This document shows, in pieces, positions 2,073 to 61,959 of a DNA stretch of 62,189 nucleotides (within the stretch, counting starts at the first letter, position 1; the number at the start of each line of letters is the position of its first letter). The stretch covers positions 1 to 62,189 of IMG/VR virus record IMGVR_UViG_3300042547_000074; one strand, 5' to 3'. A program made the position numbers and the translations under genes. The stretch is from a virus. Taxonomy: Duplodnaviria; Caudoviricetes. The notes below the pieces were generated by a model that was not told where the DNA came from, ran no database searches, and worked only from the letters and a program-made list of their open reading frames with translations.

Positions 2073-2125
2073 TAGTTTGCTCCTAGTTTGTTATCCCTAA
2101 GCGCGCGGCGATAGGGCTTGACGGA

Positions 2126-3202: not shown

Positions 3203-3220
3203 TGTGTTTGCTCCTTCGTT

Positions 3221-4124: not shown

Positions 4125-4141
4125 TGGTTTGCTCCTTCTTT

Positions 4142-41059: not shown

Positions 41060-44000
41060 GTGCCCGACGTCCGGATGCCTAACGGTACCATTATTCGCGG
41101 CGTACCTGATGGGGTTTCGCGGGATGATTTGCTTCGCCGCCTACAGGGCAGCGGATACGACACAAAAGCGCTTCTTGGGCCGCCTGTTGCCTCAGAAGCC
41201 GAGGTGCCGCAAGCACCAGAAGAACCCCAAGAAGAACTCGGCTTCTTTGGTGCGCTGAAACGCGGTTTCACCACGCTGGGTGATGTGCCGGAAGCCTTTG
41301 GTTTTGCCACGGGTAAGGAAGGTGCGCGCGAGGAGCTGGTCAAGGCGCAGGAAGGCGAAGAGAAGCGAGCCGAAGGGTTTGGTCTGGATAAGACGCTAGG
41401 TGAGAACGTACAGGCGCTCAAGGAGCTGGCCGGCGAGTCTCTTGGCTTTATGGGGGCCCCGCTTGCTGCGGGCGCTGCTGGCTCTCTTGCCGGCGGACCT
41501 ATTGGTGGGGGTATCGCAGCCGCCGCTACGCTTCTTTCCCAGTACGGTGTCCAGAACTTGGCCCGTCAGGCTCAGGAAGACAAGGCGCGGGAGGAGCGCG
41601 GCGAAGCTCCACTGGGTCCTATGCCCGGTCGCGCTGCCGCTGCCGCTGTGGGTCAAGCCGGTCTAGATGTCGCTGGTTTTGCACTCCCTGTATTGCGCCC
41701 AGTGGCTGCGGCGTTCCCGTTCCTTCGCCCGCTTATCGGTATTGGAGGTAAAAAGGCAGCGGCGGAAACGGCTGAAGCTATCGTCGGGGCAGCGGCCAAG
41801 AATCAGCTCACCATCAAGGGTGGCATTGCCCGTGGTATCGCGCAGGGGGTGGCGTTCGAAATCCCCCAAGAAACGGCACAGACGGTGCTGGAGCGGTGGC
41901 AAGCTAAGCTCCCCCTCGATGACGACTCCGCAATTGAGGAGTATAAGCAAGCGGCTATCGGTGCGGCTGTCCTCGGCGGTGGCTTCGGTGGTATCGGCGG
42001 CGGTGTAAATGTTGTGCGGGAGCGCGCCGGCGAAGCCAAAGAGGCTAAAGCGCTGGAAGCGGCGGCGGGACTTGAGCGGAGTACCCCTGAAGAAAAAGCT
42101 AGGTTTGAGTCCTTGCTGACGGCTGCGGTAAACGAGTATGCCAACGCGAACCCGAGCACTCCCCCGGCTGATATCTTTAAGGCGCTGCGGGACGACGGCA
42201 CCATCCGTTCCCTAGGCAATCAGGCGAGGGCAAATGTCGAAGCGACGCAAGCGCAGGCGGAAGCGGGAGCAGGACTGGATGGAGGAGCAGGTCAACCTGA
42301 CGTGGATGTCGCTGGAGCAGCTGGGGCAGGCGTTCCACCTGCTGGCGCTGCCGCGACCACCGGAGAAGCTACCCAAACCGTTCCACAAACTGAACCCGTC
42401 GGAATGGCTGGCACTGGAGAGCCTGCTGGTGTTGCTACTGGCGCAGAAGCGAGACCAGACGGTACACTGACGCCGGAGGCGACTGCATCCGAAACGCAGG
42501 CCGCCGAAGACTTTTACCCAGACCTGATGCCGGCCTACATGGCTGAAACCAGCGTAGCTAAGCAGCGCGCCCTAGCCCCGGTGGTAGCTAATATTTTTTC
42601 GAAGCTGACCGGGCTTGAGGGGTTCAACTCCCCCAAGATCAAAGCGCTGCCGGAGAACATCCAGAAGGCGTATAACGCCACGGTTGCGGCTGTCCTTAAT
42701 GGCGTGAAGCCCGGATACAAGGGAAAAGTCATCAACCCTGAAACAATCGCTCAGCAGAAAATGGCTGAGTTCAATGTCACGCTACCCGAAGTAGCTACGC
42801 AAGCTGCGCCTGAAGTTGCGCCTGCCGAGACGGCTGCGCCGCCTACATATACGTACGCAGACCTAGTAGCAGAAGCTGATTCGCTTGTAGCGCCAGACCC
42901 AGAGTTGGTTCTTCCGGGCCAGCTAACTGCCCAGCAGTTCCAGCAGTTCAGTATCCAAGCGGAGCAGATGCCCGCGCTGGCAGAGCAAGGCGTAGAAGTA
43001 CCTAGCGCCTTCGAATTGCGGCAAGACCTGTACAAGGTGGCTGGACGCGAAGCGCCGCCATTGGCAGCTCCGACTGCGCCTGAGCCAGCGGCTGCTGAAG
43101 AATATGACCCAGAGACCCTCGCTGCGGCTACTGCGCAGGCACCGAGCGTATGGGCCACGCTGAGCAAGCAGGTGGAAGGCAAGCCGCCAGCTGCATGGGA
43201 TACACTGGAAGAAGAGGCGCAAGACGAGTTCATCGCCGCCATTGCTAATACTCCGGTTGACGCAACGCCCGTTGCTCGGGTCAAAGCTATCCGTCCTGTC
43301 TTTGACGCTATCCGTACCGGTAAGCCCATCCCGAAGGCTGCCGCTGCTCCCGCCGCTGCGGCTGCACCTGCGCCCGAGCCGCAAATCACAGTTGAAGCTG
43401 AGCCCGCTCCCAAGGCAGGCGGCGCTGGTAAGCCGCCGAAGCCGCCGAAACCACCAAAGCCGCCTATTGGCGCTGCTCCGGAGCCCGGTCCGAAACCCAA
43501 AAAGCCCCGCGTCATCAAGATCAATCAGGCCAAACTCAAGTGGGCCATGCGTGAGGCTGGGCTGCTGCAACGGCGCGACAACGTCTTCCGTAAGAAACTA
43601 CTGCGGAGTAAAAATACCCATCAGCTGAGCGACAGCGTTGGTGAAATGTTCTTTGGTTCCCGTGCTTATCAGGGGCCGATGAATTTGCTGCGCGCTTTGC
43701 GCGATAGCCTGACGCCGCAGGCCAAGAGAGCCATGCTGCCGTTCCTTCCCACCGACGACATTACCCGGTGGGTGGGGGATCGTCTCAAGAACGTAGCGGT
43801 CATCAACAAGCTGATCGACGACATGACGGTCTACCGCAACAAGCGCCTTGAGAAGACGAGCGCCATCCAGAACAAGTGGATGAAGTTCACGACGGCTTTC
43901 CCCAAGGGGGCCGACATCCTCAACGCGCTTACCAAGCTGGCTGACTTCCACGACGTCGACCCGACGCTGGCCGCTACGCCAGAAGAATATGCCAAGAGCG

Positions 44001-46684
44001 ACCCTGAGATGAAGCGGCTCATCAAGGAGAACGCGTCCAAGGCCAGACGTGACAATCGACAGGACGCCATCGACGAGGTCTATGCCGCGAAGCGCCAGCT
44101 CATGCAGCGTGAGAACGGTAGTGGTGCAGGGTTGGAAATCTTCAAGCTGGCTAAGGACGCATACCGCCGCAACCTGATCGACTCCTATATCCTGACCCTG
44201 AACCGCATCACAGGGGCAAGTTTGAGCGCCGAAGCCGAGAAGATAGCAGTTTCTAGTATAAAGTACATGTACAAGGAGGCGCTTGCCCGCCGAGTCTACT
44301 TCCCAACCATGCGCTATGGCCGCTTCTGGATGAGCGTTGGTAAAGGGAAAAACGTCGAGTACTACATGTTCGAGAGCGCGTTTGAGCGCGACATGGCCTT
44401 TACCCAGCGAAAGCGCGACATGGAGGCAGAAAACGACCCGCGCGATATGGACAGGGGTAATGACTACAAGGAAGTCACGGACTACCTGACAAAGGGTAAT
44501 GACGCCAGTGCGGCCTTGAAAGAAGTCTTTAACCAGCTGGACTCTGGCAATTTAGAGGACACCGCGCAGCTAAAAGACACTGTCTTCCAGATGTATCTGC
44601 TTGCTCTCCCAGAAGGTGATATGCGTAAGCGGTTTAGCCACCGCCGCTACGTCACCGGCTTTGGCACGGATGCCCTGCGCGACTTTGCTAACTCACAGAG
44701 CCGGGCTGCTAGCCAGCTGGCGCGGTTGTCCTACGCCCACCAAGTTCGGAGCGCGAAAACGGCGCTTGAGGGTGAAATTAAGGGTGCGCCTGACCGTGTC
44801 GGTATGGAGCCCTTTGTAAACGAGATATCTAAGCGGGCAGATGCTGAAATCGACCCGCCGGTCCGTGGCGGCTTCTACGGCCTGCTCGATAAGTTTGCTG
44901 GGCTAGGTAACAAGTTCGTCTTCCTGTGGATGCTGACATCGCCCAAGTCGGCGCTGATCCAAGCTACGCAGCTGCACACGGTAGGCTTGCCGGTCTTGTC
45001 GGACGAGTTCGGCTTCCGCAAGGTTATGGACATCGCTGGGCGCTACAGCATGGACATTATCCTCGGCAACAAGCTGGCTATCCATCGCAAGGACAACAAC
45101 GGCGACATCATCACCGAGTTCAACGTCAACATGCGTGATGCCAAGTTCATGCAGGACTTGGCTAAGTCAGACCCGCAGAAGCACAAGCTGCTACTGGAAG
45201 CTTACGACTACGCCGACCAGCGGGGGACCTTTGCGTCCACGTTCATCAGTGACCTGAACGAAACGGCTTCGCGCCCCACCAAGGTAGGCACCGTCAAGTC
45301 GGCGCTGAAGGAAGGCGATGTGCTGTCCGCTGCCAAGCAGGGCGGCGATGCCATGATGCAGTTTATGTCCGCTGGCTTCCACCAGATGGAGAATATGAAC
45401 CGCCAGATCATGTACATGACCAGCTTCGAGCTGGCGTACGAGCAGGCGAAAAAGAGCGGCATGAGCGATGCCGCTGCCAAGGAGAAGGCCATGGAGCGCG
45501 CACTGAAGGTGACGCGCGAGACCATGTTCAACTACAGCAACTACAACAAGCCTCGCGCTTTCAAGAACCCGGCTGGGCGTGTTGCCTTCCAGTTCATGAC
45601 CTACCCAGTCATGATGACCTCCTACCTTGTGCGTAACGCCAAGAACATGCTGCCCCTAATCGGCAACCCGGAAGGGAAGATGAGCGCAGCCAAGCGGCTG
45701 TTCGGTACCCTTGGTATGACGGCGATGTACGCAGGTATGACCGGCTTGCCGCTGTATGGTGTGTTCATGATGGCGGCTGAAGCTGCGCGCGAGATGCTGC
45801 GCGATGACGACGACTTCGCTCCTTACGAAGACGATAAGGGTAACCCAGTAGGTAAGGTCGACCTGAAGTATTGGTTTGAGAACAGCTGGCTGCCAGAGAC
45901 TTTTGGTCCGGACAGCAGCATAGCCAAAACGCTTGGCCTCCCTCCTGAGCTGGCGGTGCTGCTGGAGCGCAGCGTCAAGTTCGGCCCTATCTCGGCCCTT
46001 AGTGATATGAACCTCGCCGCCTCTACGTCGCTGAACGACCTGTTCTTCCGTGGCGATATCAAAGCCGACAACTTGGAAGGCCAGTTCAAGGAGATACTCT
46101 ACAACCAGATGATGGGCCCGCTGGGCGGCCTTATCAGTAACATGACTCGTGGAGTGCAGCTGTACGAAGAAGGTGAGACGACCCGCGCCATGGAGCTTAT
46201 GCTGCCTGCGTTCGTCAAGGGCGGTGTGCGCGCCTCGCGTCTGAGCGACGAAGGTCTGAAGACCATCGACGGGAAAGTCCTCAAGGACGCAGACTTCTTC
46301 ACCGAAGGTAAACTTTTCAACCAAGTCCTTGGCTTCGGTAGCACCGAGACCTACGAGATGCAGAAGCAGAACTTCGAGGGTAAGCAGCTCATCGACGAGA
46401 TTAAGGCGGAGCGCCAAAGCATCATCCAGACGGTTAAAAACGCGGAACTCCGTAGCCTCGACAATCCTACGGAAGCCAACCTTAAGGCTGTGGACCGCGC
46501 TTACCGAGAACTAGAGGTGTTCGACAACAAGTTCCCGCTGTCACCCGTGGGTGGTGATACCATCGGCACCGCCATTTCGAACGCGCTGGAGGAGCAGGCC
46601 GGCAGCATTGGCGGGTCGGAGATTGAACCGGAATATCCGGTCATGGCCGACGTCCAAGACCGGCGTATCAACCGAGGCAAATAA
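41060..46684 (+). CDS. Very large internal virion/ejection protein
   Basis: 1874 aa, last gene of the late arm; hydrophobic Gly/Ala segments, Ala/Pro/Glu linker, long helical C-terminal region. Confidence 0.7.
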   Translation: MPDVRMPNGTIIRGVPDGVSRDDLLRRLQGSGYDTKALLGPPVASEAEVPQAPEEPQEELGFFGALKRGFTTLGDVPEAFGFATGKEGAREELVKAQEGEEKRAEGFGLDKTLGENVQALKELAGESLGFMGAPLAAGAAGSLAGGPIGGGIAAAATLLSQYGVQNLARQAQEDKAREERGEAPLGPMPGRAAAAAVGQAGLDVAGFALPVLRPVAAAFPFLRPLIGIGGKKAAAETAEAIVGAAAKNQLTIKGGIARGIAQGVAFEIPQETAQTVLERWQAKLPLDDDSAIEEYKQAAIGAAVLGGGFGGIGGGVNVVRERAGEAKEAKALEAAAGLERSTPEEKARFESLLTAAVNEYANANPSTPPADIFKALRDDGTIRSLGNQARANVEATQAQAEAGAGLDGGAGQPDVDVAGAAGAGVPPAGAAATTGEATQTVPQTEPVGMAGTGEPAGVATGAEARPDGTLTPEATASETQAAEDFYPDLMPAYMAETSVAKQRALAPVVANIFSKLTGLEGFNSPKIKALPENIQKAYNATVAAVLNGVKPGYKGKVINPETIAQQKMAEFNVTLPEVATQAAPEVAPAETAAPPTYTYADLVAEADSLVAPDPELVLPGQLTAQQFQQFSIQAEQMPALAEQGVEVPSAFELRQDLYKVAGREAPPLAAPTAPEPAAAEEYDPETLAAATAQAPSVWATLSKQVEGKPPAAWDTLEEEAQDEFIAAIANTPVDATPVARVKAIRPVFDAIRTGKPIPKAAAAPAAAAAPAPEPQITVEAEPAPKAGGAGKPPKPPKPPKPPIGAAPEPGPKPKKPRVIKINQAKLKWAMREAGLLQRRDNVFRKKLLRSKNTHQLSDSVGEMFFGSRAYQGPMNLLRALRDSLTPQAKRAMLPFLPTDDITRWVGDRLKNVAVINKLIDDMTVYRNKRLEKTSAIQNKWMKFTTAFPKGADILNALTKLADFHDVDPTLAATPEEYAKSDPEMKRLIKENASKARRDNRQDAIDEVYAAKRQLMQRENGSGAGLEIFKLAKDAYRRNLIDSYILTLNRITGASLSAEAEKIAVSSIKYMYKEALARRVYFPTMRYGRFWMSVGKGKNVEYYMFESAFERDMAFTQRKRDMEAENDPRDMDRGNDYKEVTDYLTKGNDASAALKEVFNQLDSGNLEDTAQLKDTVFQMYLLALPEGDMRKRFSHRRYVTGFGTDALRDFANSQSRAASQLARLSYAHQVRSAKTALEGEIKGAPDRVGMEPFVNEISKRADAEIDPPVRGGFYGLLDKFAGLGNKFVFLWMLTSPKSALIQATQLHTVGLPVLSDEFGFRKVMDIAGRYSMDIILGNKLAIHRKDNNGDIITEFNVNMRDAKFMQDLAKSDPQKHKLLLEAYDYADQRGTFASTFISDLNETASRPTKVGTVKSALKEGDVLSAAKQGGDAMMQFMSAGFHQMENMNRQIMYMTSFELAYEQAKKSGMSDAAAKEKAMERALKVTRETMFNYSNYNKPRAFKNPAGRVAFQFMTYPVMMTSYLVRNAKNMLPLIGNPEGKMSAAKRLFGTLGMTAMYAGMTGLPLYGVFMMAAEAAREMLRDDDDFAPYEDDKGNPVGKVDLKYWFENSWLPETFGPDSSIAKTLGLPPELAVLLERSVKFGPISALSDMNLAASTSLNDLFFRGDIKADNLEGQFKEILYNQMMGPLGGLISNMTRGVQLYEEGETTRAMELMLPAFVKGGVRASRLSDEGLKTIDGKVLKDADFFTEGKLFNQVLGFGSTETYEMQKQNFEGKQLIDEIKAERQSIIQTVKNAELRSLDNPTEANLKAVDRAYRELEVFDNKFPLSPVGGDTIGTAISNALEEQAGSIGGSEIEPEYPVMADVQDRRINRGK

Positions 46685-46720
46685 AAAACCCCCGGCTGGC
46701 TGGAGGGAACCAGCCGGGGG
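46683..46720 (-). terminator. Intrinsic terminator at the convergence of the two arms
   Basis: 11-bp stem 46689-46699/46710-46720 with U6 on the minus strand. Confidence 0.85.
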
Positions 46721-46755
46721 AATATGCAACCACAGACGGAAGGAGCAAACTTCCG
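46683..46755 (-). ncRNA. Candidate anti-RBS small RNA (~72 nt)
   Basis: 5' hairpin CGGAAG-UUUGCUC-CUUCCG contains GUUUGCUCCUUC, the exact complement of the early-gene RBS box; ends in the terminator; putative promoter just upstream. Confidence 0.55.
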
Positions 46756-46761
46756 GCTCCG

Positions 46762-46790
46762 TTATTATCTTAGAGCCTCCAGAGACGCAA
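46762..46790 (-). promoter_or_regulatory. Putative promoter of the candidate sRNA
   Basis: TTGCGT-N17-TAATAA; predicted +1 near 46754-46755, at the start of the hairpin. Confidence 0.4.
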
Positions 46791-46964
46791 CCCCTTTATG
46801 TTGTTATGCGTCTCTCCTCGAACGAATACGGTCACTCTCAGACGTTTCGCCTCTTGGTAGACGCCTTCCTTGCTCCCCTTGATATCCAAGCAGGGGATGA
46901 ACACCGAGTGACCCTTAGGGAAGGTGCCCCAGTCGATATCATAAAAGACGCCCTCAACTTTCAT
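46770..46964 (-). CDS. Small hypothetical protein
   Basis: 64 aa; IDW..F..G.SVFIPCL...GLRLWR; overlaps the primase stop. Confidence 0.65.
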   Translation of the reverse strand: MKVEGVFYDIDWGTFPKGHSVFIPCLDIKGSKEGVYQEAKRLRVTVFVRGETHNNIKGLRLWRL

Positions 46965-49752
46965 TGGGCTGCGTGTATATATCCAAGTCGAGCGTCTCGT
47001 CGTCGATCTTCAGCCACAGGCAGTGGACCCCGTCCACCGTAATATTGGTGCCCTTGGCCAAGCGGTACGTCTCGTTGTTTATCAGGCGACCACTCTCCCG
47101 CAGCTTGCGCGTCGTCTCCGAGTAGCTGATCTGGAACCGCACACAATATTCTTTGAACTGCTTGACCGAGATGTACATCATCTTGGTGTTGGGCTCGATG
47201 CGCACCAGCAGCTCACCCTTCGGTTCGCGCTTGGGAAGCGGCCTAGTCTTGCTTCGGGCATCGCCGTTGTCGATAACCAAGATATTCTGTATACTCCGAT
47301 ACAGGTAGTCGCCCAGAACCTGCTCGACGTCGTTCAGCGGGGCTTCGGTATCTCCGCGCATAATATCAATTCGCTGACAGACCCACAGATAGATGCGCTT
47401 CAGGTCCCAGCCGATAAGGCCGCACTCTTTGGCGTAGATACCCCCGACGAGGTTGGCTGCGATGGTAGCCGACCAGAAACGCTCACGAGGAAGCAGCTTC
47501 AGTTCCCGGTCAATCTTGGCCTGTGTGCTCTCTAGTTTTGCCAGCACCTCTGGGAGCTTGGAGATTATGTAGCGGAGGTAGACAGGACCGGCGTGGCCGT
47601 AGTTTTCCAGCAACGCCATATCAAACATCTGCTTGCCGTACTCGGTGCCCACGGACTCAACGAGGCCGATGGGGTACTCGATCAGGCGCATCAACTCACC
47701 TTCTGGAGCGCGCTTTAATACGGACAGCTTTTCCGCAAACGAGGCGTTAGCCGTGGACACGGTGATGGTCTGCCATGTGGTGTTGTTCTCGCGCAGCTCG
47801 TTGGTGCCAGACACCATGCGCTCTTTACCCTTGCCGTTAGACAGGCCGTAAAGAAGCTCGGAGTATTCCTCCGGCGACATGTTGGTCAGCTCGTCCATGG
47901 TTGCCGGTAGGTTGTTAAGGATACCCACCCAGAGCAGTCGCCCGTTCATCGTGTCCTTCTGCGACAGACGCAGGTCCTTGGGGTGCCCGTAGACGCTGTT
48001 CACCAAGTGGAGCACGGTTGACTTACCCGTACCAGAGCGTGGGTTATACAGGTTGATGACCGCCCCCGTCTGATTGAGGAACTTCAGAAGCGGAGCGCCA
48101 AAGGCACTCAGCGCCGCAAACGCGTGGGGCTCCATACCCTTCGAGTCGAACAGGGCCGCTGCTTCCTTCCACTTGTCCAACGTACCCACCGGACCAATGA
48201 ACTTAGCCAGCTTCTGCGTGGTCTTTGACGGCGGCGAATAGATATGCCCCGTTGCGGTAATCTCTTGATCTCCAATAACAAACCTGCTGTTACCTTCGAC
48301 CCATCCAAATTGCTGCCTCATGATCTCTGCCTTATCTTTCTCTAGGCGCATATCCGCCGATGACATGATGTAGTCGTGTACTATGTTGGCCTTCTTGCCC
48401 CTGATGTAAGCACCGCCGTCCGACATTATCTTGCGGAACTCATCGAAGACCGAGATTTTCATCATTGGGAGTGTGAACTCCCGTATGCCGTCCGCAGGCA
48501 AGTGCAGACGTATAAGCACGTAGTCCTTATAGCTCCCGTCGACACGGTCAGTGACGCGCTTCACCACGTACAGATCGTAGGGGTAGATGCAGAAGGGGTC
48601 CGGTTGCTCCCCGGCCTCGTTCTTTTGTGGCATCACCCAGACGCCGCCGCCTTCGCCCCGGTAGTAGGGTTTGGGGTACGGAGGTATCTGGAACGTCTGG
48701 ACCTCACCAGCTACTTCTTCCACCTTGATGTTGTTGGTGGCCCTCTTGGGGATTTTACCTAGGTCACGGGGGCCTAAGATTTTCCCAAAGTGTTTGCACC
48801 CCTCGCAGCGGTCAGGGTACATCGCCTTGTATCGGGCGCAGCTAGTCGCCTTCCGGATGGTGGCTACCTTCCTGTCCACCTCTTCCGGGTCGTACTGCGG
48901 GTAGTCCTTGGATATAAGGTGCACCGCCGTAGAGGCGTCCTCACACAACGCCGCCACAGACAAAGCGTAGAACCACTCGTTGTAGTCCGTGTCCGCTTGA
49001 TTAGTGTAGGCATACGCCAGCTGAGCACAGCCGTCGCCGTTGGCGGTTCGCGCCATGATACGCTTGAAGTTGTAGCCCACCCCGTCCAGCATCGCCTGCT
49101 GTTGGGGAGGAGCCTTGTAGTCGGGGTCGAAGATAGACTTGGCCGGTGCCGGTGGCACCACGCCTAGCGTCTTGCAAAACTCCTCAAAGGCAATGGGCTC
49201 ACCCTCATGGGCGACAGTGACGGGGACCTGCCCGTCACGCTTAAAGTTGAACGTGCCCGGTACGCGCAGGATGCGCGCCGACTCAAAGACCTTCTCATCT
49301 ACGCGCATCCCTTGGGTGCGGCAGACCTCGCGCAACCGGCGCGCAGCGGGCTCCCATTGGTTAGGTGCTATCTCTTCTGTCAGCGCCCAGTAGACGTGCC
49401 AGCCATAGCCGGAGTCCACCAGTGTGGGGCGTGGAAGCCCTACGGTCCTACAGAAGCCTTGAAGCGCCTTGAGTCCCTGCTCTTGGGTGTCGTAGTCCTT
49501 GCCCGGTACGCAGTCGATATCCAACCAGAACGCCTTGAGCGCGCGGACGTTTTCCTGAGTCCTGCTGGTCGCTTCCTTGTACGTGGCTACTCCGAAGTAA
49601 ACATCTCTGCCTCCCCGCAAAAAAGTTTCAATTGTTGCGTCCGCCTCTTCTCTGTCCGGGACAAGGTGCTGGCGCACGTGCCCGTTCTTGATGCCAACAA
49701 TGGCGATATGGCCAGATGCAGGCTGGACGTGTTTTAACAGGTCGAAGTCCAT
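46954..49752 (-). CDS. Primase-helicase (AEP/RepB-like primase + DUF927-type helicase)
   Basis: FWLDID, VDSGYGWHVYW, RILRVPGTFN, Cys cluster C...C..C, FGW, SGTGKST Walker A, MDELT. Confidence 0.85.
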   Translation of the reverse strand: MDFDLLKHVQPASGHIAIVGIKNGHVRQHLVPDREEADATIETFLRGGRDVYFGVATYKEATSRTQENVRALKAFWLDIDCVPGKDYDTQEQGLKALQGFCRTVGLPRPTLVDSGYGWHVYWALTEEIAPNQWEPAARRLREVCRTQGMRVDEKVFESARILRVPGTFNFKRDGQVPVTVAHEGEPIAFEEFCKTLGVVPPAPAKSIFDPDYKAPPQQQAMLDGVGYNFKRIMARTANGDGCAQLAYAYTNQADTDYNEWFYALSVAALCEDASTAVHLISKDYPQYDPEEVDRKVATIRKATSCARYKAMYPDRCEGCKHFGKILGPRDLGKIPKRATNNIKVEEVAGEVQTFQIPPYPKPYYRGEGGGVWVMPQKNEAGEQPDPFCIYPYDLYVVKRVTDRVDGSYKDYVLIRLHLPADGIREFTLPMMKISVFDEFRKIMSDGGAYIRGKKANIVHDYIMSSADMRLEKDKAEIMRQQFGWVEGNSRFVIGDQEITATGHIYSPPSKTTQKLAKFIGPVGTLDKWKEAAALFDSKGMEPHAFAALSAFGAPLLKFLNQTGAVINLYNPRSGTGKSTVLHLVNSVYGHPKDLRLSQKDTMNGRLLWVGILNNLPATMDELTNMSPEEYSELLYGLSNGKGKERMVSGTNELRENNTTWQTITVSTANASFAEKLSVLKRAPEGELMRLIEYPIGLVESVGTEYGKQMFDMALLENYGHAGPVYLRYIISKLPEVLAKLESTQAKIDRELKLLPRERFWSATIAANLVGGIYAKECGLIGWDLKRIYLWVCQRIDIMRGDTEAPLNDVEQVLGDYLYRSIQNILVIDNGDARSKTRPLPKREPKGELLVRIEPNTKMMYISVKQFKEYCVRFQISYSETTRKLRESGRLINNETYRLAKGTNITVDGVHCLWLKIDDETLDLDIYTQPNES

Positions 49753-49807
49753 CGGGCGTCACTCGTCGTTGCGGGAAAACCCGCCAACTCTGCTCTCATT
49801 GTGATCG

Positions 49808-50035
49808 TTAGTCGAGACTAGCTATGTACCGCTCAACCGCTGGCTGGTGCGCCTCTGACGGGTCGTATTCACCAGTGAACCAGTAGTAGATGGTCTGACG
49901 GGTAACCCCTAGGGCTCCGGCGACTTGCGTCACCGGGATGTTGCGCTCGATACAAGCTCGACCCAAGCGCACCCCTAGGCGGTTCTTATCCCCGTTCAGG
50001 ATAGTCTCGGCTACATAAAGGCTGTAGCCTCGCAT
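49808..50035 (-). CDS. Cro/XRE-like HTH protein
   Basis: VTQVAGALGVTRQTIYYWFTG helix-turn-helix. Confidence 0.75.
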   Translation of the reverse strand: MRGYSLYVAETILNGDKNRLGVRLGRACIERNIPVTQVAGALGVTRQTIYYWFTGEYDPSEAHQPAVERYIASLD

Positions 50036-50038
50036 AGC

Positions 50039-50986
50039 TTATTCCCCGTCCTCGTCTTCTTCGTCCAACCATGCTGCCATGGCCTGCTTGAGCTCTGGCT
50101 TAGCGGTAACTTCAGCCGACGCCCGCTTGGGCGCAGCGCGCTTGGTGGGAGCTTCAGCCACAGGGGCTTCTTCCTCCTCATCGTCACCGAAGGGGTTACC
50201 AGCCGGAGCGGCAGGAGCGACCTTGGCCTCGATCATCTTGGGCTCGGCCTTGACCTTTGCACCACCCGCTTCGACAACGCTCAGGCCGACGTAACGCTTG
50301 GTCTCAGGGTCTTCCTGCGCAGCGTCAACGAAGCCAGCTTCAACGTCGGTCAGGTGACGCACAGGCTGGAACTTCAGCTTCATGGTGTCAGCATCAAGGT
50401 CGTACATCACACGGGTGACGACGGTATCCACAGCTTCGCTGTTGGCCAGCAAGAACTTCTTGTAGCTCTCGAACGGGTGGACGCTATCGACGCCCTTACC
50501 GAACAACGAGCCAGCCGGGATTTGCATCTGGTAGATTTCACCCGATGGGTCACCGGACACCAGCACCGCGATACGGCGCAGGTAGCGGCAGGCGCGCCCC
50601 TTGCCGTTCTCGCCAGAGCCTTCGACGTTCTTAGGGCAGGCGACGCAAGAGGAAGCCGGCTTACCGGCAGCCTTGGCGTCCGGGGTCTTGCCATCGTTGG
50701 ACCAGCAGTCAGGCAGCGTAGCCTGCGCGTTGGGGTCATACTTGGAGCCGTAGAACTGGCGCGACGGTTCAGCCAGCATGTCAACGATGATGACGTCCAG
50801 CTGATGCGGGACAGCCTTGCCGATCTGCTCACCACCCACGATGCGCTTGAAGGTGCCGTTGGTGTTCAGGCCGATGCGGCGCAGGCTACCGCCGTTGCTA
50901 CCCATCTTGTCCAGCAGCTTGGACTGCCGGCGTACGGTGGGGACGCTAGATGCGTCTGCGAAAATGGTCAGGTTGCTCATATTCAT
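50039..50986 (-). CDS. Probable ssDNA-binding protein
   Basis: 315 aa; PDCWS.DG..P, C..CP.N..GS...GRAC; acidic C-terminal tail; replication context. Confidence 0.55.
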   Translation of the reverse strand: MNMSNLTIFADASSVPTVRRQSKLLDKMGSNGGSLRRIGLNTNGTFKRIVGGEQIGKAVPHQLDVIIVDMLAEPSRQFYGSKYDPNAQATLPDCWSNDGKTPDAKAAGKPASSCVACPKNVEGSGENGKGRACRYLRRIAVLVSGDPSGEIYQMQIPAGSLFGKGVDSVHPFESYKKFLLANSEAVDTVVTRVMYDLDADTMKLKFQPVRHLTDVEAGFVDAAQEDPETKRYVGLSVVEAGGAKVKAEPKMIEAKVAPAAPAGNPFGDDEEEEAPVAEAPTKRAAPKRASAEVTAKPELKQAMAAWLDEEDEDGE

Positions 50987-51393
50987 TCACCCTTTTTGCT
51001 AGGTTTGCGAACTTGGATTACGAACTTGCGGTCGAGCTGAAGGCCCATGGGCATCAGGTCTGGGTTCTCGTCCAGAAACTGCTGCATGTTACCGTTGTGG
51101 ATACGCTTTTCGAGGACGAACGGGATGTTCTGCTCGACCACGAAGTTGTACATGGACTCCCAATCGTTAGTCCAGTAACGGGACTGAACACGCCGTGACA
51201 CAGTACCCACAGGGGTCTTCACGCTGTCCAGATTGTGTTCGTTGCAGAACTCCAAGATAGCGGAAGAAATAACCTCAAGGCTCTTCTCCAGCTTCTCCAT
51301 CTGCGCTTCAAACACTTCTTTACGCTTGGCGATGGTCTCGCGCACATTACGGTACGCTTCCACCATCTCCTCGATACTTACTGAGTCCGACAT
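50983..51393 (-). CDS. Conserved replication-module protein
   Basis: Coiled coil plus SVKTPVGTV..., DW, LEKRI, P.GL; GAAGGAGCAAAC RBS. Confidence 0.7.
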   Translation of the reverse strand: MSDSVSIEEMVEAYRNVRETIAKRKEVFEAQMEKLEKSLEVISSAILEFCNEHNLDSVKTPVGTVSRRVQSRYWTNDWESMYNFVVEQNIPFVLEKRIHNGNMQQFLDENPDLMPMGLQLDRKFVIQVRKPSKKGE

Positions 51394-51422
51394 GGTTTGC
51401 TCCTTCGGTTGCCGGGGTATTG

Positions 51423-51451
51423 GATGTAGCAGTCTGATTAGATTGTGTCAA
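51423..51451 (-). promoter_or_regulatory. sigma70-type promoter
   Basis: TTGACA-N17-TACATC. Confidence 0.65.
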
Positions 51452-52979
51452 GTATATCATGATACAGGTCGATAAGTTTTTCGTGGTTGGTGATGTTGTT
51501 CCGGAGCATGGCGTACAGCCGCGACTCCACCTCGCTACCCTTGATGTGCACCACCGTCATGGCGTTCTTCTGCCCCGGTCGGTCGATGCGCGCGTTGGCT
51601 TGCAGGTAAGTCTCCACTGACGTGACCGGTGCGTACCAGATGATTGTGTCTGCCGCCGTAAGGGTAAGCCCGTGGCTGGCAGCCTGCGGCTGGATAACCA
51701 GCACCTTCGGGTCAGGGTCGTTCTGGAACTTGGTGACGATATCACTGCGGCGATTGACCGGCACCTTACCGCTAATGACGTCACAGGAGATGCCTTCCTT
51801 CTCCAGCCGGGTTACGAGCAGGTTGATGGTGTGCGTGAAGGGGACGAAGACCAGCACCTTGTTGCTTGTCTCGTTGATGACCTCCAGCACCGCAGTAAGC
51901 CGGTTGGACACGTCGAACTCAAGCACCTGCCCATCATCCGTGTAGACCGCGCCTCCGCTGATCTGGAGCAGCTTGTTGACCTTGGTCGCTGCGTTGACGG
52001 CGCTGACCTCCTCGCCCGCCGCCTCGATGAGCAGCTGGCTCTTGAGCTGATTGTAGTACTTCTTCTGCTGGGGGGTCAGGTCCACCTCTCGCTCGATGTG
52101 GGTGACGGGAGGCAGGTCAAGGCAGTCCTTCTTTGCGAACCGGATAGCCGGCTGAAGCACCTCATGCACGACCTTGCTTGCGTGGGGCTTGGGTGCCCAC
52201 TTGAACTTGCTTATCGGCATCATGACGCTGTCGCGGAACGGGCCGAAGTACTTAGGGCACTTGGGTGTATCCAAGAGCCGCGCCAAGCCGTAGGCGTCTA
52301 CTGGTGACTGAGCTGCGGGCGTACCCGTAAGCATCCACACCCGTGGGTTGAGCGCCTTCACGATCTTGTTGAGTATCTTCCAGCGGTTGGTCTGCGCGTT
52401 CTTATATGCAGACGCCTCGTCCACAACGATCAGGTCAAACCTACCCGCTATGATCTCGTCGATCACCGTGGCCACGCCGTCGAAGTTAATGATGACGAAC
52501 TCAGCCCCAGCACGGAGGACCTTCTCGCGCTGCTTGGCGCTCCCGTATGCCACGCTACACGCACGGTGCATGGCAAACTTAAAGATGTCCTGCTGCCACG
52601 CCGACTTCATGATGGACAGCGGGCACAGCACAAGGACGCGCTTTATCAGCCCTTTCTTCATCAGGTAGTCGGACGCCCAGATGACGCTGGCGGTCTTACC
52701 CGTACCCTGCTCGTTGAAGCAGAACGCCCGATGGCGCAGCGACAGGAACGACGAAGTCGTCTTCTGGTGGTCGAAGGGGGTATAGCGTCCAGTCCACTTG
52801 TAGTCGCGCAATATGGGCGACGGGGGGTCAAACCCCAGCTGCGCCAGTGCCTCGGCTTCCTTGTGACCCCACTTGACCAGCACACCCTCGCTGGTGCTGG
52901 CGCTCTTTGTTACTACAGATGTAATAACAGACGGGTCATCGACGCTGACGAGCAGCGCCCTGTCTTCAACGATTTCCAC
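51438..52979 (-). CDS. SNF2-like SF2 helicase
   Basis: QGTGKT, VVDEAS, LTGTP, GLTL, QANARIDRPGQ. Confidence 0.9.
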   Translation of the reverse strand: MEIVEDRALLVSVDDPSVITSVVTKSASTSEGVLVKWGHKEAEALAQLGFDPPSPILRDYKWTGRYTPFDHQKTTSSFLSLRHRAFCFNEQGTGKTASVIWASDYLMKKGLIKRVLVLCPLSIMKSAWQQDIFKFAMHRACSVAYGSAKQREKVLRAGAEFVIINFDGVATVIDEIIAGRFDLIVVDEASAYKNAQTNRWKILNKIVKALNPRVWMLTGTPAAQSPVDAYGLARLLDTPKCPKYFGPFRDSVMMPISKFKWAPKPHASKVVHEVLQPAIRFAKKDCLDLPPVTHIEREVDLTPQQKKYYNQLKSQLLIEAAGEEVSAVNAATKVNKLLQISGGAVYTDDGQVLEFDVSNRLTAVLEVINETSNKVLVFVPFTHTINLLVTRLEKEGISCDVISGKVPVNRRSDIVTKFQNDPDPKVLVIQPQAASHGLTLTAADTIIWYAPVTSVETYLQANARIDRPGQKNAMTVVHIKGSEVESRLYAMLRNNITNHEKLIDLYHDILDTI

Positions 52980-52997
52980 TAGTTTGCTCCTAGTCTG

Positions 52998-53282
52998 TTA
53001 CTTCGGGCGTTTGCGCTCTCGTGCGCTAACCTCCGACACGAGGTTGCCTTTACTATCACGCTTGAACGAGCGGTTCTTAGTCTTCGGCTCTACCCGCAGG
53101 CCGTCGCCGTTGTTGCCACCCTTATCAAACGCGCGGACGTGAGCGACATCCATGCCGTCGCCCTTCTTAACCTTGCCTTCCTTCGCAAGCTTCGCTCGGG
53201 CGGCGTTGCGCTTGGCCCGGTTCCGCTTCTGCACCAGCGTACCTTGATACTTCTCGTATTCCGCTTTGTAATCCCTAGCCAC
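52998..53282 (-). CDS. Small HNH-like basic protein
   Basis: RDYK.EY...RNAAR...GDGMDVAH...GG.N...NRS. Confidence 0.6.
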   Translation of the reverse strand: MARDYKAEYEKYQGTLVQKRNRAKRNAARAKLAKEGKVKKGDGMDVAHVRAFDKGGNNGDGLRVEPKTKNRSFKRDSKGNLVSEVSARERKRPK

Positions 53283-53478
53283 CCTCTACCTCCTTCGTCT
53301 CAAAGTACGGAGCCATCAGGGTGACGATGCGCCCCGTGGCAAGTGACTTCCCTTCTACCAAATCTGGCCACCTTTTGCTCGGCCCAATTATATGGGTAAG
53401 GTAGTACAGGTAGCCATGTTTGTTAGCCCTACTCTGGTGGTAATCATCGAGCTCCGACTTCAGGCTTAGCAGTTTCAT
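53275..53478 (-). CDS. Hypothetical protein
   Basis: ATG at 53478 with GGAGG RBS; overlaps both neighbours. Confidence 0.55.
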   Translation of the reverse strand: MKLLSLKSELDDYHQSRANKHGYLYYLTHIIGPSKRWPDLVEGKSLATGRIVTLMAPYFETKEVEGG

Positions 53479-54140
53479 CCGCGCCTCCGTGGTCGCCAGT
53501 GTTCGCAGGTCTCGACGGGACACCAGCCGCACAGCCCGCTGGGGTTGGCGTTCCACACCCCGTTCTCCTTGGCCGCCTCAAGCCGGTCCAGCTGGGTCTC
53601 AAACACACCCATGTAAGTGGGTAGGTGCTGGCGGTGGTGAATCTTCTTGGGCATCTCCTGACTGACAACGTACAACAGTGCGGAGTTGATGGTCTCCACC
53701 TCGGGGTAGTGGATGAAGATAGCCCCAGCCAGCAGGTCCAGCTGCTTCATATCGGCGTACTTGGCGTTTTTACCAGTCTTGTAGTCGACCAGCCACGCCT
53801 TGCTGCCATTGACGATGAGCAAGTCAGCGATACCCCGGTACCACACGTCCTTAGCGAAGAAGCCGCAGGGCTTCATGTCGCTCGTTACGCCTATCTTGAT
53901 CTCAGCGTACTTGGTGCCATGCTTCTTCGCCAGCGGCTCAACAAAAGTTCGCATAAATGCAAACTTCTCAGGGATGGGTGTCCCCTTCGTGATAAACAAC
54001 TCAGCCGCTTCGTGAACGGCGGTCCCATAGTCAGCAGCTTCCCCCGGCTCGTCCTTGACGTCCTTAACCACCTTGAGGTGGAAGTATTTCTTCGGGCACT
54101 GCTCGAAGGTTTTGATGCTGCTATAGGACCACGCGGTCAT
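53475..54140 (-). CDS. PD-(D/E)XK (Cas4/RecB-like) exonuclease
   Basis: WSYS.....CP, GTAVH, GIAD...DYKTG, QL, C-terminal C.WC....C. Confidence 0.85.
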   Translation of the reverse strand: MTAWSYSSIKTFEQCPKKYFHLKVVKDVKDEPGEAADYGTAVHEAAELFITKGTPIPEKFAFMRTFVEPLAKKHGTKYAEIKIGVTSDMKPCGFFAKDVWYRGIADLLIVNGSKAWLVDYKTGKNAKYADMKQLDLLAGAIFIHYPEVETINSALLYVVSQEMPKKIHHRQHLPTYMGVFETQLDRLEAAKENGVWNANPSGLCGWCPVETCEHWRPRRRG

Positions 54141-54421
54141 TATTTTTTGGCTTTCGTAAAACGACCCTTGCCATCACGTGTATCATTCTTACTGGCTTCG
54201 GCCAACGCCTTCTCTAGGGCAGCGGTGTCCTTTTTAAGGTCCTGATGCATTGCCCTGAGCCTGTCTAAACTGCTACCAAGCTCGTCAATTTCGCGCTCGT
54301 TTTCTTTGTTGATGAACTCAAGCTCTTCGATATGCTTCGTTAGCCTGATGTAGGTCTGCTCAGCCGCAGCCAGCTTCGCCTTCAGTTCGTCGATTTCACC
54401 CCACGGGTTGTACCAAGCCAT
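54140..54421 (-). CDS. Coiled-coil hypothetical protein
   Basis: 93 aa; AAGGAG RBS; ends RDGKGRF.K. Confidence 0.65.
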   Translation of the reverse strand: MAWYNPWGEIDELKAKLAAAEQTYIRLTKHIEELEFINKENEREIDELGSSLDRLRAMHQDLKKDTAALEKALAEASKNDTRDGKGRFTKAKK

Positions 54422-54432
54422 AGTCTCTCTCC

Positions 54433-55158
54433 TTACCTTGCGTTGCCTTGGAGCCGGTCTGAGACCAGCTTTGCATAGCCGGCGATGTCGATCCAGCTAT
54501 CTAGGTGCGACGGGTTACCCGTCAAAATACGACCAATCTTCGTGACAATCATATCGAGAGCCTGAAGCTGGTCTGGGTATAGCTGCGTATCCTCACGCAC
54601 CATCGCATTGTGGATCACCTGCTTGAGCTTGATGGCGATGTCGGCGTTACGCATGAAGGTACCGTATTGCTCGGCCCGCTTGTTGAGGATTTTTTCAATC
54701 TGCTCTTCCGCGACTGGCTCCGGCGCTACGCGCTCTTTACCCTTACCGCTAGACAAGCTGTGAAGCAGCGCTAAGTGTTCCTCCGGCGACATGTTGGCCA
54801 GCTCGGACTTCGCTTCCGGGTAGTCACGCTCCGTCAGGGTTGCCTCTGCGTCTCTAAAGTACGCAGGCCGATCACGGTCCAGTATCTTGATCTGTTCTGC
54901 TCGGACTTTAGGGTCCAGTCCCTTAAGGTGTTCTGCGTGTTCTTTCGTAACCCGTCGCATCATCGGCGGGTGTTTGCTTACATACCTTGGGCGCACCACG
55001 TTGTCGTCGTTTTCTTCCGCCTTCTCTTCGGCCATCTGTTTCTTCAGTAGCCAGACGTAGCCCGGACTTACAGCCATGTGGTTAGTAATCTCCTTAGTGG
55101 AAAGACCCCTCCTAAGTAGTGTCTTCACGTCTTTCGCTTTGTTAGTCTTCGTCGTCAT
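54433..55158 (-). CDS. N-terminal HTH-like + C-terminal DUF6378-like domain protein
   Basis: IL..R..QYG.F...ALDMI..KIGRIL.G.P.H.DSWIDIAGYA; start moved to the ATG at 55158 after AGGAGCAAG. Confidence 0.65.
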   Translation of the reverse strand: MTTKTNKAKDVKTLLRRGLSTKEITNHMAVSPGYVWLLKKQMAEEKAEENDDNVVRPRYVSKHPPMMRRVTKEHAEHLKGLDPKVRAEQIKILDRDRPAYFRDAEATLTERDYPEAKSELANMSPEEHLALLHSLSSGKGKERVAPEPVAEEQIEKILNKRAEQYGTFMRNADIAIKLKQVIHNAMVREDTQLYPDQLQALDMIVTKIGRILTGNPSHLDSWIDIAGYAKLVSDRLQGNAR

Positions 55159-55168
55159 TTGCTTGCTC

Positions 55169-55957: not shown

Positions 55958-56139
55958 TTCGTTTGCTCCTTCTTATAGTCGTAGACCTGCCGTGCAGCGG
56001 CAGCGATGGTCACGCCAAAGTGCTTGGCGATGTCCTCAAAAGGCTTACCCTCTGCGTACATATCCCAAATCTCTTGTCGCTTTTCAGGCGTCCACCAGCC
56101 GGCAGGTTTGCGCGGGCGACTGACAATGTTTTTCGTCAC
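55954..56139 (-). CDS. Small HTH protein
   Basis: WTPEKR..I..MY.EG....DIAKHFGVT..A. Confidence 0.65.
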   Translation of the reverse strand: MTKNIVSRPRKPAGWWTPEKRQEIWDMYAEGKPFEDIAKHFGVTIAAAARQVYDYKKEQTK

Positions 56140-57234: not shown

Positions 57235-57676
57235 GATCTGCTCCTTTGTCGGTGTACTTCGCCTTCAGGACGTCATCGTAGCAATTCTGGGCTAAATGGA
57301 TTACGTCTTTCAGGAAGTCAGCTGCGATAACCCAGTCCGTCTCCTTCAGCTTGAGTAAGTCCCTACCTAAAACTTGCCCATCTTCGCCGTCCCAGCGGAA
57401 CCTGAGCTTAATCCCTTCGACTTTTTCTGCGTAGTACTTCGCATTGTACTTTGCATGGTAGGCTGGGTTTTTAGCCTTCCACTTTCGTTGGTGAGCGTTT
57501 TTACATGCCCTACATTTCCGCGCGCCGCTCGATGTATAAATAATGTTGTCCCCCTCAAAAGGGTGCCCGCGCTTACACACAAGCTTCTTCGGCCTTCCGC
57601 GCGGCCTTCCGCTCCGCCGTTTCGGTAGGGGGTCGTACCCCAGCGTGTTTTCCAAGTCTTCAATCTCACCCGCCAT
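57224..57676 (-). CDS. Zinc-binding putative DNA-binding protein
   Basis: AT-hook-like GRPRGRPK, then CKRGH....N......R.CRAC as in HNH-associated domains. Confidence 0.55.
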   Translation of the reverse strand: MAGEIEDLENTLGYDPLPKRRSGRPRGRPKKLVCKRGHPFEGDNIIYTSSGARKCRACKNAHQRKWKAKNPAYHAKYNAKYYAEKVEGIKLRFRWDGEDGQVLGRDLLKLKETDWVIAADFLKDVIHLAQNCYDDVLKAKYTDKGADHGG

Positions 57677-60655: not shown

Positions 60656-60676
60656 CGTTTGCTCCTTGGGGAATCG

Positions 60677-61557: not shown

Positions 61558-61568
61558 GTGCTTGCTCC

Positions 61569-61763
61569 TTAGTTGCTATCCCAGTGGTGATAACCCTCAC
61601 CACGTCCCTTGTCGTAGGCGTCCTCGCGCTCTTCGTCGGCGCGTTCCACCAACACCATCGCAAGGTCGTGCCAGTTCACCTCGTCGTTGGTGCCATAGTT
61701 CACCCACCGCTTGAGTGCTGCCCAGTCGAGGGTGCGGAAGTAGGTGCGATCTTTCTTAGCCAT
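61569..61763 (-). CDS. Hypothetical protein
   Basis: 64 aa; AAGGAGCAGA RBS. Confidence 0.65.
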   Translation of the reverse strand: MAKKDRTYFRTLDWAALKRWVNYGTNDEVNWHDLAMVLVERADEEREDAYDKGRGEGYHHWDSN

Positions 61764-61959
61764 TGGTCTGCTCCTTCTTGGTTAGGCCCAGCGCATACAG
61801 GCGCTGGCGCAGGTGGTTGGGGCTGAAGCCCCACAGGCCAAGCACGTCACGGCCATACGCCGCACACTCTCGGTTAAGCTCCTCTTCAAGAGCGCGCAGC
61901 TTGGACTTGCTCTCGTCGTACTCACGCAGCAGCGTGAACACCTTGGGTTCGTCGGTCAT
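61756..61959 (-). CDS. Hypothetical protein
   Basis: 67 aa; AAGGAGCAAG RBS. Confidence 0.65.
   Translation of the reverse strand: MTDEPKVFTLLREYDESKSKLRALEEELNRECAAYGRDVLGLWGFSPNHLRQRLYALGLTKKEQTNG

Follow-up and report, generated by a model that had tools for sequence, protein, structure and literature searches.

Few phage small RNAs that control the phage's own genes in trans are known to us, and the textbook cases, namely c4 of P1/P7, CI of P4, OOP of lambda and sar of P22, come from temperate coliphages. Among bacterial small RNAs (sRNAs), AbcR1/2, alpha-r14 'cuckoo', Xanthomonas sX13 and Staphylococcus RsaE pair with the Shine-Dalgarno (SD) regions of many mRNAs through C/U-rich loop motifs, of which a single RNA may carry several. 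The enterobacterial host sRNAs CpxQ and SdhX are released by RNase E from 3' untranslated regions (3'UTRs), share the terminator of the upstream operon and in some cases feed back on related genes, while T4 uses an early protein, RegA, which occupies the initiation regions of a set of early mRNAs and thereby lowers their translation. Here, we analyze an RNA element of the tailed-phage record IMGVR_UViG_3300042547_000074 (Caudoviricetes), the whole of which, 62,189 bases rated 100% complete, is referred to as the window. The element lies at the gap (46685-46769) where a plus-strand structural arm meets a minus-strand replication arm. We consider it probable that positions 46683-46756 of the minus strand encode a regulatory RNA of about 74 nucleotides (nt), which ends an operon running from a Mu-Gam-like gene to a primase gene and which would pair with the leader of the Gam-like gene, as well as with further leaders specific to its class of phages. 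Most likely, it acts as a brake on the translation of the phage's own replication genes.

The junction RNA works most like c4 of P1/P7, and also like the bacterial anti-SD sRNAs, and is a member of neither group. As described in the passages on c4 in PMC12197685 and PMC8198154, c4 is a small phage RNA co-transcribed with its targets, whose loops pair around the ribosome-binding site (RBS) of its own operon and block translation; from P1 to P7 the loop of c4 has changed along with its target, and heteroimmunity is the consequence. In a table of PMC2864571, the C4 antisense RNA is listed as Rfam family RF01695. The junction RNA resembles c4 in being complementary to RBS sites in the same operon and in co-varying with them between phages, a likeness that is functional only; in a cmscan search of 46300-47200 on both strands with E values up to 10, C4 was absent from the 13 matches, and none of these reached its gathering score. 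Moreover, the junction RNA lies at the 3' end of its operon, whereas c4 lies upstream of its targets, and it appears directed at the Gam-like and other replication genes, whereas c4 is directed at an antirepressor. Unlike c4, one of its seeds fits about ten leaders in the window's class. The apparent lifestyle of the window phage also differs, with no sign of lysogeny: no integrase or immunity gene was present among approximately 30 proteins scanned, and no prophage copy was found in 185,579 species genomes.

With the anti-SD sRNAs the junction RNA shares a CU-rich loop and the presence of further motifs of this kind, namely a CCUCC in the terminator loop and, in two relatives (L230 and L237), two anti-SD (GCUCC) hairpins within one RNA. 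In two others (L056 and L072), a second UUUGCUCC lies inside the terminator loop. As for membership in the AbcR-type group, to which a preliminary description of this locus had likened it, no Rfam family came near its threshold: ar14 (RF02344) scored 20.2 bits against a gathering score of 58.8, sX13 (RF02232) 16.8 against 50, and AbcR was unlisted. What is more, the junction RNA differs from these sRNAs in being phage-encoded and seemingly aimed at the phage's own genes, with a specificity that would come from a co-varying extension 3' of GGAG. Its likeness to RegA is one of logic only and implies no homology, since RegA is a protein and the junction repressor would be a base-pairing RNA. Like CpxQ and SdhX, it shares the terminator of the upstream operon; unlike these host RNAs, it belongs to a viral family, and it is predicted to target the leader of the very operon that it ends.

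Co-variation of the seed with the phage's own leaders

In the window, the 12-nt box GAAGGAGCAAAC occurs in five exact copies, where 0.01 would be expected, and none of 100 shuffles reached five. Four of them, at 3206, 4127, 51395 and 55961 on the minus strand as in the preliminary description, each end 1-3 nt before an ATG or GTG, and they precede genes for an AAA ATPase, a protein of 65 amino acids (aa), the Gam-like protein and a 262-aa protein. The fifth copy, at 46739 on the plus strand, is inverted and lies inside the hairpin of the junction RNA. The same description had counted partial boxes before nine more genes. Six further minus-strand starts indeed have at least 8 nt of the box (11 nt at 2074, 52981 and 60657; 9 nt at 61562 and 61769; 8 nt at 57239), but the count was somewhat high, two plus-strand genes having only 6-7 nt, and no plus-strand start in the window is preceded by a match longer than 7 nt. 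Genome-wide, all seven non-self matches of at least 11 nt to the 5' part of the RNA lie just upstream of minus-strand starts; at a threshold of 9 nt, 9 of 29 non-self matches lie at starts, compared with 0.25 (maximum 3) for 100 shuffled seeds. The extended box of about ten window genes reads (A)AGGAGCAAAC.

Because duplex energies calculated without intramolecular competition are inflated (60 of 72 leaders fall below -15 kcal/mol), we used net cofold energies instead. By this measure, the five best of the 71 leaders are, in order, those of the Gam-like gene, the SNF2-type helicase, the 262-aa gene (g262), the 65-aa gene (g65) and a 64-aa gene (g64b), with the energies given in Table 1, and minus-strand genes with GGAGCA make up eight of the top nine. 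In the predicted complex with the Gam leader both blocks are paired, that is, the seed with the box and the GGUUGC of the RNA linker with the GCAACC that lies directly 5' of the box.

Gam-like and helicase orthologues were located by tblastn in the relatives, and their leaders were read. RNAs with UUUGCUC loops are accompanied by leaders of the type GGAGCAAAC, and in phages of this class both the Gam and the helicase leaders keep AAGGAGCAAAC, the Gam-like proteins being only 42-61% identical to that of the window. In other lineages, the seed UUUUGCUC is accompanied by the Gam leader GGAGCAAAAC (L181, L206), UUGCUC by GGAGCAA(C/U) (L182, L201, L203, L225), UUAGCUC by GGAGCUAA (L277, L289-L294, L315, L308), CUCCUUUU by UAAAAGGAGCU (L317), GAAUCGCUCCU by AGGAGCGAUUC (L271; this type of pair can also be given as AAUCGCUC with GGAGCGAUUC), GUCGCUCCUU by AAGGAGCGAC (L287), GAAAUCUCCU by AGGAGAUUUC (L311) and CUCCUUGGAA by UUCCAAGGAG (L191/L322). 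UCGCUC loops occur with GGAGCGA, and the helicase and primase leaders of these lineages also read GAGCGA. The helicase site, in turn, is cGAGGAGCAAAC where the RNA stem is GAGAG/CUCUC and cAAGGAGCAAAC in GGAAG-stem lineages. The clearest case is that of L185/L239 (also represented by L295, with L214 related), which have a wholly different RNA at the same place. Namely, the unpaired linker of L239, GUUACCUCU-AAG-GGUUGACUCC, matches the Gam leader, GGAGUCAACC-AA-AGAGGUAAC, in colinear blocks of 10 and 9 nt (net -24.0 kcal/mol), and the L185 RNA matches its own Gam leader in blocks of 10 and 7 nt (net -20.3 kcal/mol). The second block in these RNAs echoes the GGUUG(C) of the window's linker, which faces (G)CAACC 5' of the box, and many lineages again combine an RNA that has GGUUG with a leader that has CAACC.

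For a statistical comparison, 116 loci were clustered into 56 lineages and cognate RNA-leader pairs were set against 20,000 permutations. The mean longest match with the Gam leader (n = 56) was 9.20 nt compared with 7.37 +/- 0.17, and its net energy was -11.8 compared with -8.7 +/- 0.41, the permutations that reached the cognate value numbering 0/20,000 for both. The helicase leader (n = 24) gave 8.17 compared with 7.32 nt (13/20,000) and -9.28 compared with -8.04 (248/20,000). A within-locus control, which is free of composition effects, points in the same direction: in 28 of the 56 lineages the longest or tied-longest perfect match of the whole locus, both strands included, falls in the 36-nt Gam leader (in 16 it is the unique longest), and the Gam leader match reaches at least 9 nt in 37 of them. 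On the primase tree, the GGAGCAAAC type is found on both deep clades, with derived pairs in approximately six to seven separate places. Comparison thus shows complementarity and co-evolution of seed and leader in several lineages, which is the co-variation with each phage's own extended RBS that the preliminary description had proposed to look for, and the leader comparisons support its notion of a hairpin whose exposed anti-RBS seed is directed at the phage's own genes, here those for replication and recombination on the minus strand. Judged from these sequences, the RNA has its main conserved partner in the leader of the Mu-Gam-like gene, with which the operon ended by the RNA begins. The phage-wide regulon of the preliminary description stands in part: a set of about ten boxes is confined to the window's class, while the Gam leader is deeply conserved across the family, with the helicase site second.

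One could argue that the element, while a genuine sRNA, acts on host mRNAs or as a general anti-SD competitor, and that its match to phage leaders is a by-product of their being tuned to the host ribosome. Indeed, 61 of 63 RNAs found next to primase genes carry CUCC or UCCUU, which could pair with any SD, control leaders show a weak cognate signal (see below), and some lineages are without a clear Gam leader match. We nevertheless regard this as improbable for the following reasons. The co-variation extends outside the SD core, into CAAAC, CUAA, CGAUUC and AUUUC extensions and CAACC or GAGUCAACC blocks, which a common host ribosome could not dictate, and the Gam leader is the best or tied site of its whole locus in half of the lineages. 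In addition, the box has a C after GGAG, unlike canonical GGAGG, which is what one finds in L275, a relative that has no such RNA and carries an ordinary AAAAGGAGGAGCU site with canonical AAGGAGG before its Gam-like gene. This is a single case, but its canonical site in the absence of the RNA is suggestive and fits a seed that pairs with the phage's own leaders.

Structure, strand and operon of the RNA

The minus strand of the gap reads exactly as first described, with the hairpin CGGAAG-UUUGCUC-CUUCCG, a linker of 16 nt (UCUGUGGUUGCAUAUU) and a terminator with six U, including the CCUCC in the terminator loop; the terminator stem, given then as 11 base pairs, comes to 13 pairs, 10 of them G-C, in a terminator scan. 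The minimum free energy of the 74-nt stretch is -36.8 kcal/mol (z = -5.0, 200 shuffles), the terminator at 46720-46689 together with its U6 is the strongest terminator-like site within 46500-62189, and the GCUCCU of the 5' hairpin is the core that most relatives keep. A covariance model of the family (R1) has its sole match in this genome at 46683-46791 of the minus strand (70.5 bits, E 2.7e-14). In the alignment fitted to the model, with 86 matches (74 distinct) and 860 cells, standard pairs occupy 99.2% of the cells, each of the 12 pairs in the model, five of them in the hairpin and seven in the terminator, has changes on both sides, and none of 500 shuffles reached any of five structure measures; sliding the partner by 1-3 columns lowers the pairing to 43-70%. 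In particular, the hairpin stem occurs as GGAAG/CUUCC, GAGAG/CUCUC, GACAG/CUGUC, GCAAG/CUUGC and GGUAG/CUACC. An alternative fold, GGAGC/GCUCC around the hairpin, was rejected: L007 reads GGAUU there, yet keeps GGAAG/CUUCC.

As to the strand, approximately 21 G-U cells fit the minus strand, compared with 7 unpaired cells, the T-run is conserved on the minus strand only across the family, and relatives have an intrinsic terminator on the RNA strand with different stems. Covarying helices, strand-specific G-U pairs and a one-directional terminator together bear out the claim of a minus-strand RNA, and comparison thus shows the element to be a structured RNA of that strand. By the same token, the alternative considered at the outset, a read-through RNA of the plus strand that presents a decoy RBS, is disfavoured by the minus-strand-only T-run, and we regard it, together with a relic RBS or a chance match beside an ordinary terminator, as the least probable explanation of all. 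Namely, although no plus-strand U-tract follows the stem, so that late transcripts may read through, and although one RNA-library contig bridges the junction, the last plus-strand gene and the terminator stems vary among close relatives where the hairpin is fixed, a 17-mer of the hairpin is kept at 39-60% primase identity, the copies of the 12-mer far exceed their expected number, and no ORF (open reading frame) follows the plus-strand box. That the inverted box might serve an ORF on the plus strand was also considered and rejected, there being no ATG, GTG or TTG at RBS distance, in agreement with the earlier remark that the box is not a working RBS on that strand.

The operon is ordered promoter, Gam-like gene, 315-aa gene, helix-turn-helix (HTH) gene, primase, 64-aa gene, RNA and terminator. 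In at least 38 of 54 lineages the start of the Gam-like gene is preceded, at a distance of 45-60 nt, by a TTGACA, which often takes the form of the perfect palindrome TTGACAnTGTCAA and then looks like an operator, perhaps for the operon's own HTH protein. With such a conserved promoter-like site before the Gam-like gene, what the RNA matches is the leader of its own operon. For the RNA itself, the TTGCGT-N17-TAATAA element pointed out earlier is present (46790-46785 and 46767-46762), but the scan does not flag it, and the family keeps only the TA-rich hexamer; in 102 of 116 distinct elements TAnnnT or TATnnn follows 16-18 nt after a -35-like TT(T/G)(A/G)CG, a hexamer whose conservation may be due to coding. 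The RNA may therefore have a promoter to itself, or it may be no more than the last part of the operon mRNA.

The latter possibility leads to an explanation in cis only, in which the 3'UTR of the operon mRNA folds back on its own 5' leader and stops Gam translation once the transcript is complete, with no free sRNA and no regulon. The position of the RNA at the 3' end of an operon whose first leader matches best, the Gam leader being its one deeply conserved partner, and the weakness of the window's own promoter-like element would all agree with this. What speaks for a free RNA is that the TA-rich hexamer is kept at promoter spacing in noncoding DNA after the ORF stop in those 102 of 116 elements. 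In addition, folding in cis is unable to explain the window-class boxes that precede genes of separate transcription units, some of them as far as 20 kb away and beyond the record ends. While the two modes are not exclusive, we consider action in cis alone unlikely, if a good deal less so than the other alternatives.

The 64-aa ORF always lies directly before the RNA. Its protein, invariant across the family at Y8, W12, G18, F22, P24, C25, G58, R60 and W62, is modelled with a mean confidence (pLDDT) of 93.4 as two short N-terminal strand segments followed by a strand-helix-strand-strand core; it has no PDB match at E<=0.001 and no Pfam or PHROG match, and the weak rows for ACT-like, KhpB and S8 folds were not interpretable. 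Possibly, this protein is a partner of the RNA. The hairpin might be a binding site for a protein such as this one, or a 3'-end stability element, rather than a base-pairing regulator: ORF and RNA are always adjacent, the protein is basic and confidently folded without a known fold match, and 5' hairpins and terminators do stabilize RNAs. A stability hairpin, however, would need no fixed loop sequence, and neither function explains the matching changes in leaders 4 kb away or the RNA of the L185 type, where the seed sits in an unpaired linker. A chaperone role of the 64-aa protein would fit regulation by base pairing and not replace it. For these reasons, we find such an element very improbable as the whole explanation.

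A number of observations weigh against the regulatory RNA that we favour. To begin with, the control leaders also give a cognate signal, 2-3 times smaller than that of Gam: the primase leader (n = 56) gave matches of 5.66 compared with 5.03 nt and energies of -7.37 compared with -5.75 (both 0/20,000), and the leader of the 315-aa gene (n = 52), significant by energy only, 6.06 compared with 5.94 nt (4576/20,000) and -8.6 compared with -7.35 (5/20,000). Since these controls show a signal and the loci range from 39 to 59% G+C, part of the cognate effect may be shared base composition, although the background may also reflect real weaker sites. The Gam leader match is shorter than 9 nt in 19 of the 56 lineages, and about 14, or about a quarter, have no clear match. 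In particular, the AUGCUC/CUGCUC clade (L180, L198, L210, L244) pairs through GAAGGAGCA only, GAGAG-stem lineages compensate at the helicase site and not at the Gam site, and GACAG and GGUAG stems are uncompensated. Related lineages, moreover, are not independent, so that one should count approximately six to seven events and not 56, which is few but more than one. Within the window, minus- and plus-strand leaders overall differ weakly in net energy (Mann-Whitney p = 0.08), and the alignment behind the structure counts had been fitted to the model itself. The promoter-like element of the window is weak and unflagged by a consensus promoter scan, and its -35 part lies within conserved codons, so that the RNA may be only a 3'UTR. 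Finally, the sole RNA library containing the phage (X20, with 0.24 of the sampled words) yielded assembled metatranscriptome contigs of approximately 240-590 nt on both arms, which carry no strand, ends or level and may include DNA carry-over. One of these, a 317-nt contig of a sediment metatranscriptome run, covers 46556-46871 and thus bridges the convergent junction and the terminator; it may represent DNA carry-over or read-through.

Distribution of the RNA family

Hundreds of uncultured relatives share the structured element. Among 12 close relatives with primases 83-91% identical to that of the window, 8 reach the junction, and all 8 have GGAAGUUUGCUCCUUCC unchanged, with a different terminator stem and last plus-strand gene. 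The exact 17-mer of the hairpin was found in at least 118 IMG/VR stretches. Among the 118 listed, 88 have a common layout of ORF end, TA-rich hexamer, hairpin, linker and terminator (75 by script and 13 window-type TTGCGT variants assigned by eye) and 4 have other contexts. The remaining 26 belong to an unrelated AT-rich phage group (e.g. L014, L031, L034, L038, L047), in which the 17-mer sits at one fixed place in a conserved, coding-looking stretch, as judged without an ORF check, and is unrelated to the RNA family. The primases of most carriers are only 39-60% identical to that of the window, which means that a noncoding 17-mer has been held fixed over deep divergence. In bacterial and archaeal genomes (596 Gb; 185,579 species genomes) the 17-mer occurs 48 times, compared with approximately 70 expected by chance, and a single match, on an 8-kb contig of a metagenome-assembled genome, has the phage layout. 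Because these matches are near chance and scattered over taxa, we take the element to be viral; no prophage copy of it was found among the same genomes, and a host origin of the hairpin was rejected as far as they show.

To avoid circularity, we also used anchors other than the hairpin, namely the end of the small ORF and a profile of 20 primases. The small ORF led to 131 stretches with enough sequence downstream, of which 60 have the exact 17-mer and most others have variant hairpins at the same place. Primase relatives occur in at least 594 IMG/VR stretches, and the best 80 of these, comprising 73 new loci, were examined with R1, which had been built from 87 distinct elements and finds one match per locus. 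R1 matched in 63 of the 73, once each, and in every case the match follows closely on the end of the primase gene and has the same strand. In 8 of the 10 misses the contig breaks off at the primase end or no more than 140 nt from it; the other two are L279, where the small ORF is directly followed by a terminator without the RNA, and L275, which has neither RNA nor terminator. The exact 17-mer is present in 11 of the 63 elements and GCUCC in 45, while CUCC or UCCUU precedes the terminator in the 61 mentioned above.

Neither megablast of 44000-50000 nor blastn of two family elements found a match in 50,697 deposited phage records, where the window primase has only distant relatives of at most 28% identity. 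A string search of the literature (main texts, supplements excluded) found neither the 17-mer nor the RNA form of the 12-mer; the DNA form turned up in five papers from unrelated fields only, judging by titles and abstracts, and topic searches returned no description of such an RNA family. By these comparisons of sequence, the element is a real and new RNA family.

A possible circuit and its genomic setting

If our reading is correct, the 5' hairpin would display the anti-RBS seed in its loop and 3' arm, with the GGUUGC of the linker adding a second block and a strong intrinsic terminator closing the RNA. The RNA would pair first with the Gam leader, which opens its own operon, and, in the window's class, also with about nine other replication and recombination leaders that share the extended box. 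Such pairing would cover the SD, lower translation and possibly mRNA stability, and work in trans through a free small RNA, so that the early proteins would be under feedback or be shut off at a set time. The position of the RNA, last in the operon, suggests that a delay is built in.

One can go a step further and imagine a circuit for early shut-off that is built from RNA alone and whose 'addresses' differ from lineage to lineage, in which an operon-end RNA silences its own leader together with all genes of the same address. Among these lake phages, which are apparently virulent, this would set up a contest resembling heteroimmunity. We offer this as a tentative idea, more doubtful than the regulatory RNA as such. 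If true, the RNA would do what the RegA protein does in T4, with a delay provided by transcription itself, and the diversification of addresses (CAAAC, CUAA, CGAUUC, AUUUC and the two-block form) would mean that co-infecting relatives are insulated from one another or silence each other's replication genes. The RNA family is abundant in lake viromes, and the window phage is present in many lake-water metagenome runs. Because seed and leader changed together several times, the likely target can be read from sequence alone, so that reporters in a laboratory strain could be used to test a system that is otherwise uncultivable; the lineage variants may thus amount to a ready set of orthogonal RNA/RBS pairs. 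The proposed RNA would also offer one reason why some phages have oddly extended, near-identical ribosome sites on a subset of their genes.

Table 1. Features of the window around the junction RNA, its predicted targets and the two gene arms (energies are net cofold values in kcal/mol)
Feature	Position	Strand	Remarks
Predicted RNA, ~74 nt (5' hairpin, linker, terminator)	46683..46756	-	covariance model and fold
5' hairpin CGGAAG/UUUGCUC/CUUCCG	46737..46755	-	stem 46755-46750 and 46742-46737; loop 46749-46743
Anti-RBS seed GUUUGCUCCUUC	46739..46750	-	exact complement of GAAGGAGCAAAC; loop and 3' arm of hairpin
Linker block GGUUGC	46726..46731	-	second pairing block, complementary to GCAACC of Gam leader
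Intrinsic terminator stem-loop	46689..46720	-	13 pairs, 10 G-C, then TTTTTTATTT; loop carries CCUCC
U6 tract of terminator	46683..46688	-	overlaps TAA stop of plus-strand 1874-aa gene
-10-like GATAAT / TAATAA	46762..46769	-	just after ORF stop (TAA 46772-46770)
-35-like TTGCGT	46785..46790	-	TTTACG in most relatives; inside Gly-Leu-Arg codons of 64-aa ORF
64-aa ORF	46770..46964	-	conserved, basic, always directly before RNA
Primase/helicase gene (DUF927)	46954..49752	-	anchor gene upstream of RNA
HTH protein gene	49808-50035	-	in Gam-to-primase operon
Gam-like gene	50983-51393	-	first of operon that RNA ends
Gam leader, GCAACC + GAAGGAGCAAAC	51395..51412	-	best predicted target, 1 nt before ATG; -17.5, rank 1/71 leaders
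Promoter-like TTGACA-N17-TACATC	51423..51451	-	upstream of Gam-like gene; not flagged by stricter consensus scan
Box AGGAGCAAACT before SNF2-type helicase (51438-52979)	52981..52991	-	predicted target; -15.9
12-nt box before 262-aa gene g262 (55169-55957)	55961..55972	-	predicted target; -15.2
12-nt box before 65-aa gene g65 (3927-4124)	4127..4138	-	predicted target; -13.7
12-nt box before AAA ATPase gene (2126-3202)	3206..3217	-	predicted target; -12.9
11-nt box before Hjc-type resolvase gene (60353-60655)	60657..60667	-	predicted target
11-nt box before 286-aa gene (1212-2072)	2074..2084	-	predicted target
Partial box GAAGGAGCA before 64-aa gene (61569-61763)	61769..61777	-	-13.1
Partial box AAGGAGCAA before 283-aa gene (60706-61557)	61562..61570	-	
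Partial box AAGGAGCA before PDDEXK endonuclease gene (56812-57234)	57239..57246	-	-12.1
Structural arm	5293-46684	+	includes large terminase
Large terminase	7703-9226	+	
1874-aa gene	41060-46684	+	last of structural arm; LPD39 match sub-threshold
Replication/recombination arm	46770-62189, resuming 1212-5115	-	in the linear record

Besides the DUF927 primase, the minus arm codes for a borderline Mu-Gam-like protein, an SNF2-type helicase, a family A DNA polymerase, an Hjc-type resolvase, a PDDEXK nuclease, the HTH protein and an exonuclease. On the other side of the junction, the stop codon of the 1874-aa gene abuts the T-run of the RNA terminator, and since close relatives have different genes at this position, a recombination boundary appears to lie between hairpin and terminator. 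Elsewhere in the genome, two small minus-strand genes are each preceded by a copy of CAGTTCAGATAAC (4125-4154 and 4701-4730, minus strand), and an inverted relative of it, AAACTGGTTCGGCTAAC, lies upstream of the AAA ATPase gene (3203-3260, minus strand); these repeats may be operators or terminator remnants.

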